Assembly: GCA_964484435.1 (NCBI GenBank)
Contig: CAZAGL010000001.1
Location: 1-35,930, forward strand
From: an uncultured Caulobacteraceae bacterium
GTDB taxonomy: Bacteria > Pseudomonadota > Alphaproteobacteria > Caulobacterales > Aquidulcibacteraceae
Length of the DNA: 35,930 nucleotides
Direction: 5' to 3'
In this document: positions 31,391 through 31,732 of the stretch, piece after piece
How positions within the stretch are numbered: position 1 is the stretch's first letter
How the letters are laid out: every line of letters starts with the position of its first letter
Translations under genes and position numbers: made by a program
Notes under the pieces: generated by a model
The model's database searches: none
The model's input: only the letters and a program-made list of their open reading frames with translations
What the model was told of the DNA's origin: nothing

Positions 31391-31732
31391 TCAGGCGCGC
31401 AAGTATTGCAGCACCGAGTTGGGCCGCAGATTGGCGATGGAGGCGCTCTGCTCCTGCAGGCCCTGGCGCACCGAAAGCGCCAGCAGGCGCGCGGCATCGG
31501 CATTGGCCGGCGGGGAATTGGTCAGCGCCAAGGCGGCGAAGATGCTTTGCGGATCGGCGGGCGCGGGGGCATCCTCCGCCTCGATGGTATCGCGCACCGG
31601 CGCTTGCGCCTCTTGGCGCTGTGGGCGCTGGCCCGCCTGGGCGCTATCGGTTTGGGTTTGGGGGCCTGGCGGGCGCGTATCGAGCAGCCCAAGTGGGGAG
31701 AAACCTTGGGAATTGGGCCCCGTGATCGACAT
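31391..31732 (-). CDS. Small (113-aa) protein with a Pro/Gln-rich N-terminal half and a flagellin C-terminal (D0 helix)-like end
   Basis: ATG 31732 is preceded by GGAGG at 6 nt. The C-terminus 'NADAARLLALSVRQGLQEQSASIANLRPNSVLQYLRA' aligns with the C-terminus of the neighbouring flagellin, '[40 protein letters not shown]'. It is the last gene of the flagellin module. Confidence 0.5.
   Translation of the reverse strand: MSITGPNSQGFSPLGLLDTRPPGPQTQTDSAQAGQRPQRQEAQAPVRDTIEAEDAPAPADPQSIFAALALTNSPPANADAARLLALSVRQGLQEQSASIANLRPNSVLQYLRA

Follow-up and report, generated by a model that had tools for sequence, protein, structure and literature searches.

A flagellin C-terminus-only protein of 113 residues in a Caulobacterales flagellin cluster, and the longer flagellin paralogue from which it very probably descends

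The stretch of DNA analysed here, which we call the window, is the whole of positions 1 to 35,930 of contig CAZAGL010000001.1 (assembly GCA_964484435.1) from an uncultured Caulobacteraceae bacterium, and its exact sequence was found across many drinking-water, biofilter and freshwater metagenomes. On its reverse strand, at the end of a cluster containing flbT, flaF and a flagellin gene, lies a small gene for a protein of 113 amino acids (aa), hereafter the mini gene and the mini-protein. We found that the mini-protein is similar to flagellin in its C-terminal helix only and that the mini gene, by its pattern of sequence conservation, is a genuine small gene under selection. As to its identity and evolutionary origin, the mini-protein is very probably the shrunken descendant of a separate flagellin paralogue of ~240 aa, here called family X, which occupies the same position in related genomes. 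For its function we propose, by analogy and with considerably more reserve, a partnership with the cluster-encoded proteins FlaF and FlbT.

Results

The mini gene and its parts

The mini gene and the segments of its product lie as follows.

31391..31732, minus strand: coding sequence of the mini gene, stop included, 113 aa (open reading frame (ORF) and translation; orthologues of 100-123 aa; overall ratio of nonsynonymous to synonymous substitution rates (dN/dS) 0.19-0.31)
31739..31743, minus strand: Shine-Dalgarno sequence GGAGG, 6 nucleotides (nt) before the ATG at 31732-31730; the orthologues have the same GGAGG and spacing
31673..31732, minus strand: residues 1-20, MSITGPNSQGFSPLGLLDTR, a conserved N-terminal peptide and candidate export signal (8 of 20 residues invariant in eight orthologues; suggestive collinear alignment with the N-terminus of X)
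31553..31672, minus strand: residues 21-60, a variable, Pro/Gln/Ala-rich, disordered linker (predicted local distance difference test score (pLDDT) 44-56, no secondary structure)
31394..31504, minus strand: residues 77-113, NADAARLLALSVRQGLQEQSASIANLRPNSVLQYLRA, a C-terminal helix of the flagellin CD0 type (31 of 37 residues invariant; matches to flagellin and to X)

An earlier note on this DNA had described a small gene with a GGAGG six nucleotides before its ATG and a Pro/Gln-rich, probably disordered N-terminal half, and reading the sequence confirmed both the start and the spacing. The description of the N-terminal half agrees with its composition, P, Q, G, S, T, A, D and E making up 78% of residues 1-60, and with an AlphaFold2 model built with the family alignment (mean pLDDT 58), which places helices at residues 61-71, 78-99 and 107-112 and has no secondary structure before residue 61. 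A longer reading of the gene, as 132 aa from a TTG start, was rejected because every orthologue starts MSI(T/A/S)GP at the position of the ATG.

The mini-protein carries only the tail of flagellin

The last 34 residues of the mini-protein align with the adjacent 566-aa flagellin flush at the flagellin C-terminus (16 of 34 identical, E 1e-5, BLASTP), and the Smith-Waterman score of 72 between the two proteins was equalled by one of 2000 shuffles of the mini-protein (37.7 +/- 5.7). Searched as a single sequence, the mini-protein had no match in Pfam at E<=1, Flagellin_N included, and matched the NCBIfam flagellin model PRK12687 weakly, at model positions 278-312 of 313 (E 0.067). A profile of the mini family searched against the whole PDB matched flagellins only, in seven structures (7sn9, E 6e-8; Caulobacter FljL, FljK, FljM and FljN, E 2e-6 to 2.5e-4), with the matches confined to the final ~40 residues and all alignments reaching the last residue of flagellin. 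The positions that are conserved in the CD0 helix of flagellins are retained (A-R-L..L.VRQ.L..Q..SIAN..P...L..(F/L)R), and residues 77-113 thus resemble the end of Flagellin_C (PF00700) in being flush with the C-terminus and in keeping its invariant positions, but differ from it in the family-specific features LRPNS...QYLRA and ARLLAL, the latter in place of ARLQ(S/A)L. The similarity covers only the last ~35-40 of the 86 positions of Flagellin_C, so that the complete CD1 and CD0 region is absent.

Neither an N-terminal flagellin region (ND0/ND1, Flagellin_N) nor the FlgM anti-sigma-28 domain (PF04316) was matched in the mini-protein in Pfam or NCBIfam, and similarity to FliD was absent from the Pfam, NCBIfam and PDB profile searches. 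By these sequence comparisons, the description of the mini-protein in the earlier note as a flagellin C-terminus only, with its last ~37 residues equivalent to the D0 C-terminal helix and with no flagellin N-terminal domain, is correct and beyond chance. The expected similarity to Flagellin_C was borne out in part: it went undetected in Pfam with the single sequence, whereas the family profile matched the C-termini of flagellins.

The mini gene is conserved and under purifying selection

A word-index search found eight close orthologues of the mini-protein (63-90% identical, 111-115 aa) and one that is more distant, to which an exhaustive profile search added three further relatives (102-108 aa, E<=1e-13); a broader profile reached ~25-30 protein clusters of 100-123 aa, all of them unnamed or 'hypothetical'. 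The relatives come from metagenome-assembled genomes named Hyphomonadaceae, Terricaulis, Vitreimonas and Caulobacteraceae. Conservation is distributed unevenly along the protein, since in the eight close orthologues invariant residues number 8 of 20 at positions 1-20, 2 of 40 at positions 21-60 and 31 of 37 at positions 77-113. The same holds for dN/dS, estimated by the Nei-Gojobori method, which is 0.03-0.07 in the C-terminal part and 0.2-0.45 in the N-terminal part (residues 1-72), at dS of 0.3-0.9. Furthermore, lineages with identities of 39-90% agree in the start, the Shine-Dalgarno sequence and the length, and a second group of mini-proteins (P0032, P0039 and P0040, with N-termini reading MSVSLNTS...) matches the first in architecture and in gene order.

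A gene of this kind could potentially be the remnant of a second flagellin gene, as the earlier note had considered, in which case degraded flagellin N-terminal sequence might be expected to flank it. When eight X proteins were compared with the window by tblastn, the mini region gave the in-frame C-terminus and otherwise noise in other frames, and no degraded flagellin core was found in the flanks in any frame. Compared with the 3' end of the adjacent flagellin gene, the mini gene shows a DNA identity of 56%, with 13 of 34 third positions identical. We therefore rejected the pseudogene reading and the reading as a recent duplication of the 3' end of the neighbouring flagellin, because of the purifying selection, the clean flanks and the 56% DNA identity, and with them the idea that the mini gene is a fragment of that flagellin. 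The suggestion of a remnant holds as history, in that the gene is a shortened paralogue, and fails as function, since the gene is selected and not decaying.

Gene order and the slot of the mini gene

The genes around the mini gene are the following.

35167-, plus strand: moxR
34571..34996, minus strand: flbT (Pfam FlbT, 2.1e-39)
34252..34605, minus strand: flaF (Pfam FlaF, 6e-31)
32312..34012, minus strand: flagellin gene, 566 aa (Pfam Flagellin_N, 9.7e-23; Flagellin_C, 5.1e-13)
31878..32219, minus strand: FlaG-like gene, 113 aa (tblastn to positional orthologues; conserved upstream neighbour of the mini gene)
30233..31390, plus strand: ORF of 385 aa, convergent to the mini gene, without Pfam matches

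The order in the window is thus moxR on the plus strand, then flbT, flaF, flagellin, the FlaG-like gene and the mini gene on the minus strand, and then the convergent 385-aa ORF. It is repeated in the orthologous contigs, with flbT-flaF directly upstream in the window's clade, and the synteny that the earlier note had envisaged was found: orthologues exist and the slot after flbT-flaF-flagellin-flaG-like is kept. The triplet formed by flagellin, a gene of ~110-139 aa and the mini gene was seen in at least five different wider contexts, including beside DUF7088/DUF4340 genes (in the locus L033 additionally with flgI-fliX), beside an RND efflux operon and glycosyltransferases, and beside a rod-binding-protein gene.

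Family X is a longer flagellin paralogue in the same slot

In 15 loci of related genomes (Hyphomonadaceae, Terricaulis, Vitreimonas), with the same order of a divergent moxR followed by flbT-flaF-flagellin-flaG-like, the FlaG-like gene is followed, where the mini gene would be, by one for a protein of ~235-265 aa, which ends in ...DLDADGARLLALQVRQGLE..IANVEPQAVLSLFRA. This family X comprises at least 494 clusters, named 'hypothetical protein' and once 'flagellin protein FlaA', and has no precomputed Pfam domain, with which direct scans of members agree. An AlphaFold2 model of X (mean pLDDT 79, core >90) is disordered at residues 1-43 and consists of helices 44-84 and 87-109, a beta-hairpin, a helix at 157-193 and terminal helices at 201-219 and 230-238. 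Compared with the PDB, this model is structurally closest to FljM, FljN, FljL and FljK, flagellins of the Caulobacter filament (E 7e-5 to 8e-4, probability 1.00), and by tblastn X matches the window flagellin in both its N-terminal half (E 4e-8) and its C-terminal half (E 1e-12). Judged from the model, X is a diverged flagellin paralogue of D0 and D1 only, in which the ND0 segment is rich in Pro and Gly and lacks a predicted fold. X is a strong candidate for a 'regulatory flagellin' outside Caulobacter, in Hyphomonadaceae, Terricaulis and Vitreimonas. One X member, P0024 (176 aa, on a single 3.8-kb contig), has another internal deletion (…VQAEPGAAQGAAGIRHDIDADGARLL…), by which it retains the N-terminal helices and loses the CD1 helix; this is a hint that X has repeatedly been able to dispense with its D1 core, or may alternatively be an assembly artefact.

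The mini-protein and X share their C-termini. Residues 69-113 of the mini family align with the X C-terminus with a probability of 98% (E 7e-14, hhalign), the identity by tblastn is 55-65% across 37-47 aa, and the X motif D.D(A/G)ARLLAL.VRQ.L...IAN..P..L..(F/L)R is present in the mini C-terminus. Moreover, the mini gene, directly after the FlaG-like gene and downstream of flagellin, sits in the X slot, and the ribosome-binding regions of the two genes are alike (GGAGGCTGGAC-ATG against GAAGGAGCGGCTGGC-ATG). The X type nearest to the mini C-terminus is that of P0020 at locus L025 (IANARPSSLLAYFRD), whose lineage forms the sister group of the mini clade in a tree of FlbT and FlaF (support 0.89) and has a long flagellin and the 385-aa neighbour in common with it. 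The N-terminal parts can also be aligned: hhalign found a collinear M-S-I..P..G..LG.D.R....DRVE (E 8.7e-4, probability 23%), the X peptide compared being MVSSI.PG..GA.ALGVDTR ... GDRVE. The score of this alignment was reached by 3 of 150 column-shuffled controls (empirical p ~0.02), and scores of single-sequence hidden Markov models for the N-terminus were 2-12.5 bits, mostly above those of their own shuffles.

What separates the two proteins is the folded D1 core of flagellin (ND1 helices, beta-hairpin and CD1 helix). X, for example P0045, which resembles the mini-protein in its slot, C-terminal motif, ribosome-binding region, an upstream CtrA-type box and, weakly, its N-terminal peptide, keeps a confidently modelled D1 (helices 44-109 and 157-193 and the beta-hairpin), whereas the mini-protein is without ~130 residues of it, and tblastn found no trace of the D1 core in the DNA flanking the mini gene. 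Since the mini-protein shares the C-terminus and, weakly, the N-terminal peptide of X, it has the appearance of an X that lost its D1 core, and because X has the flagellin fold the direction of change would run from flagellin to X and from X to the mini-protein; from the sequences, the last step looks like the loss of ~130 residues of D1. Faster evolution of FlbT and FlaF in the mini clade, which might have pointed to co-evolution, was considered and rejected: the clade is more distant in MoxR too, so that there is no clear excess.

Upstream motifs and transcripts

A full site for the regulator CtrA is TTAA-N7-TTAAC, and a half-site is TTAACCAT (PMC3692519). Of 12 X loci scanned, 11 contain a single full TTAA-N7-TTAAC in their 7.6-12 kb, and it is placed 94-109 nt before the start codon of X; the twelfth, L025, has half-sites only. 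An example among the X loci (L012-L026) is the X gene at L015:5398-6114, with its CtrA box at L015:5304-5319. The corresponding motif of the mini gene and a promoter motif of the flagellin gene are found in the window at these positions.

31840..31847, minus strand: TTAACCAC, at -108 from the mini ATG and differing at one position from the CtrA half-site TTAACCAT
34085..34100, minus strand: sigma-54-like promoter TGGCAC-N5-TTGG upstream of flagellin, kept at -88 in L004 and L009 as in the window

A half-site reading TTAACCA(T/C) lies at -105 to -123 of the mini gene in the window, L004, L009 and L001, with TTAACCAT itself in L009 and L001; the mini locus L030 has CTAACCAT, with one mismatch, at -114, and in L033 a full CtrA site occurs together with a half-site. 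The CtrA-type motifs upstream of the X and mini genes are conserved and are predicted sites. Upstream of the mini gene in the window there is also TGGCAT-N6-TTGA, the spacing of which is wrong for sigma-54 and which is not conserved in L009, and the surroundings of the mini gene yielded neither a sigma-70-type promoter nor a terminator.

The 5' leaders of the flagellin genes contain, in all loci (L001-L033; ~34020-34060 on the minus strand of the window), a GC-rich hairpin with an AAAA or AAAC loop, of the type CCGGC-AAAA-GGCC, followed in nearly all loci by the ribosome-binding motif (G/C)CCAGAAGG(G/A). By its sequence, this hairpin is a candidate target of FlbT. In X26, a sequencing run labelled RNA(?), a contig of 251 nt covers the last two-thirds of the mini gene (31391-31612), to which it shows 8 differences, and departs from the window sequence exactly at the mini stop codon. 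This divergence at the stop implies a relative that carries the mini gene in another downstream context, in which the gene is possibly transcribed.

The neighbouring genes

The label flaG, which the earlier note had given to the gene upstream of the mini gene, holds through relatives: of its positional orthologues, those in L025 and L027 reach the gathering score of Pfam FlaG and others fall just short of it, and tblastn connects them to the window copy, which itself has no Pfam match. The name 'FlaG-like' is hence justified through transitive sequence homology only. The mechanically called ORF, 31878-32249 on the minus strand, has a GTG start and 123 aa; as the orthologues have 113 aa, the start was placed at the ATG at 32219.

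The convergent position of the 385-aa ORF is kept in L004, L009-L011, L029/L031 and L033, and L025 has a weak match. In L033 and L029 the ORF is accompanied by a gene of 142-143 aa and then by a Rod-binding (FlgJ-like) gene, with flgI and fliX next in L033, and because of these genes the 385-aa ORF may be a flagellar gene.

Discussion

A proposed role as a partner of FlaF and FlbT

The mini-protein cannot polymerise or be a filament subunit, and its parts can potentially be understood in another way. An ancestral flagellin copy would have given rise to X (~240 aa), with the foldable ND0 helix already lost, and in the lineage of the window the deletion of the D1 core of X would have left a ~20-residue N-terminal peptide, a fast-evolving linker and the CD0 helix. 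The CD0 helix would serve as a handle for cytoplasmic partners encoded in the cluster, namely FlaF (secretion chaperone) and/or FlbT (translational repressor), and the N-terminal peptide would mark the mini-protein for removal by the flagellar type III export apparatus on completion of the hook-basal body. Its export would then report the status of assembly, as that of FljJ does with FlbT in Caulobacter; alternatively, the mini-protein may titrate FlaF. Flagellar export signals sit at the N-terminal end of proteins, and CD0 is the segment gripped by chaperones such as FliS in other bacteria. FliS itself, which the earlier note had brought up as a possible partner, is doubtful because FlaF is the reported flagellin secretion chaperone in Caulobacter (PMC7591256).

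The closest known system is that of FljJ in Caulobacter crescentus, and summaries of the FljJ work of Ardissone et al. 2020 (PMC7591256, PMC9812332) describe FlaF as a flagellin secretion chaperone that binds all six flagellins, and FlbT as binding FljJ only, the pair repressing translation of the other flagellins. According to the same summaries, fljJ is activated by CtrA, and export of FljJ via the finished hook-basal body relieves the repression by FlbT. Set against this account, the mini-protein shares with FljJ a descent from flagellin, the inability to form a filament on its own and a gene lying close to flaF, flbT and flagellin in a Caulobacterales-type bacterium; the activation of fljJ by CtrA may have its counterpart in the predicted CtrA-type boxes of the X and mini genes. 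By analogy, the proposed logic, in which binding to a cytoplasmic partner is relieved by flagellar export, would be the same. The differences are that FljJ, as summarised there, has the full length of a flagellin, shares 49% identity with its paralogues and is built into the filament, whereas the mini-protein has 113 aa, neither ND0 nor D1, no Pfam flagellin domains and not the full flagellin fold, and that FlbT binding and secretion were demonstrated for FljJ whereas for the mini-protein they are proposed by analogy.

A looser comparison, of function only, can be made with FlgM, which is also small and largely disordered with a C-terminal helical part for partner binding. The export of FlgM through the completed hook-basal body is a checkpoint. 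It differs from the mini-protein in that the two have no sequence relationship and that the partner of the mini-protein would be FlaF or FlbT, not sigma-28.

The roles as a regulator or decoy, or as a secreted checkpoint substrate, that the earlier note had suggested stay the best reading by analogy, with indirect support because of the CtrA-type box upstream of the mini gene and of its longer relatives. For the mini-protein as a non-structural, probably exported partner of FlaF/FlbT that couples flagellin synthesis or export to assembly, an analogy with FljJ, we regard the case as evenly balanced. A general mechanism of partnership with FlaF/FlbT, taken alone and argued by the same analogy, has at best that chance and perhaps somewhat less. 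That the mini-protein is a true FljJ-like co-repressor would press the analogy further and is doubtful. Equally tentative is the hypothesis that an export peptide and a CD0 helix, within 113 residues, may suffice as a secreted assembly sensor of the FlbT/FlaF checkpoint and replace a full regulatory flagellin in several Caulobacterales lineages.

Several observations weigh against descent from X followed by a role with FlaF/FlbT. The N-terminal homology between the mini-protein and X is, from the sequences, suggestive only and not proof. A near-half-site, TTAACCTT, also lies at 34118-34125 on the minus strand, ~106 nt upstream of the flagellin ATG, and an exact half-site, TTAACCAT, at 35112-35119 on the minus strand, ~116 nt upstream of the flbT start. 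Flagellin and flbT thus share an upstream TTAACC(T/A)T pattern, and of the six near-matches that the 36-kb window contains, three fall in the module's three intergenic regions, all on the coding strand; since these motifs also precede flagellin and flbT and the half-site is short, the timing of the mini gene is not clearly separable from that of flagellin. Moreover, the mini orthologues in L001 and L030 have good sigma-54-like motifs upstream. The metatranscriptome X25, the only one with the locus, has a flat depth of ~10-20 over 20 kb, unrelated genes included, and may therefore be DNA. At the same time, some lineages have the triplet with no flbT-flaF nearby, and for FlaF and FlbT themselves no solved structures exist and the flagellin region bound by either is not defined.

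Alternative explanations

The main rival is that the mini-protein acts as an export competitor or tuner of filament length: loaded on FlaF by way of its CD0 helix, it would compete with FlaF-flagellin for the FlhA gate and work with the FlaG-like protein to limit flagellin export, with no control of translation. The mini gene is always paired with the FlaG-like gene directly downstream of flagellin, its triplet occurs in some genomes away from flbT-flaF, as noted above, and in Campylobacter FlaG antagonises the docking of chaperone-flagellin to FlhA (PMC11536152), all of which would fit such a competitor. However, the conserved full CtrA box of X suits an early checkpoint factor over a late limiter of length, and the two explanations overlap, as recognition of CD0 by a chaperone is common to both. 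We consider this rival unlikely.

A structural role has a smaller chance still, and we hold it to be quite improbable. Here the mini-protein would be a minor element of structure or assembly whose CD0 takes a place within the D0 core, either where hook and filament meet or at the filament tip, and it would act as a primer, plug or terminator or stand in for a cap function. CD0 does build the inner tube of the filament, the positions conserved in flagellin are retained, and the slot after flaG is the position of fliD in many other bacteria. On the other side, the mini-protein is without the ND0 helix or the D1 domain and so misses most inter-subunit contacts, its linker evolves fast, the N-terminus of X is disordered where ND0 would be expected, and similarity to FliD is absent.

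The weakest alternative, that the mini gene is a non-functional remnant, either a decaying second flagellin or a partial duplicate of the neighbour's 3' end, as might be thought from its holding just a terminal piece of a flagellin-type protein and from its lack of a Pfam match, is on the sequence evidence essentially refuted and has hardly any likelihood left, given the strongly purifying selection on the helix at dS up to ~0.9, the retention of start, Shine-Dalgarno sequence and length across divergent lineages, the flanks free of degraded core and the low DNA identity to the adjacent flagellin.

Significance

The mini family and X are absent from Pfam, NCBIfam and the literature found, and the analysis thus exposes an entirely unannotated family of flagellin paralogues, X. 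The concept of a regulatory flagellin is known, whereas a 113-aa derivative made of termini only is not known. How alphaproteobacteria lacking FliA and FlgM sense the completion of the hook-basal body is poorly understood, and to our knowledge FljJ-FlbT-FlaF of Caulobacter is the sole known example of such sensing. Even if the mini-protein were inert, it would still document a flagellin paralogue whittled down to its termini under selection. As it stands, it would offer a ready-made minimal substrate for mapping FlaF/FlbT interactions and the export signal. If the mini-protein is indeed a secreted sensor, these bacteria would have arrived at a FlgM-like solution built from parts of flagellin, and the mini-protein would show which minimal features FlaF/FlbT and the flagellar export gate need for recognition.

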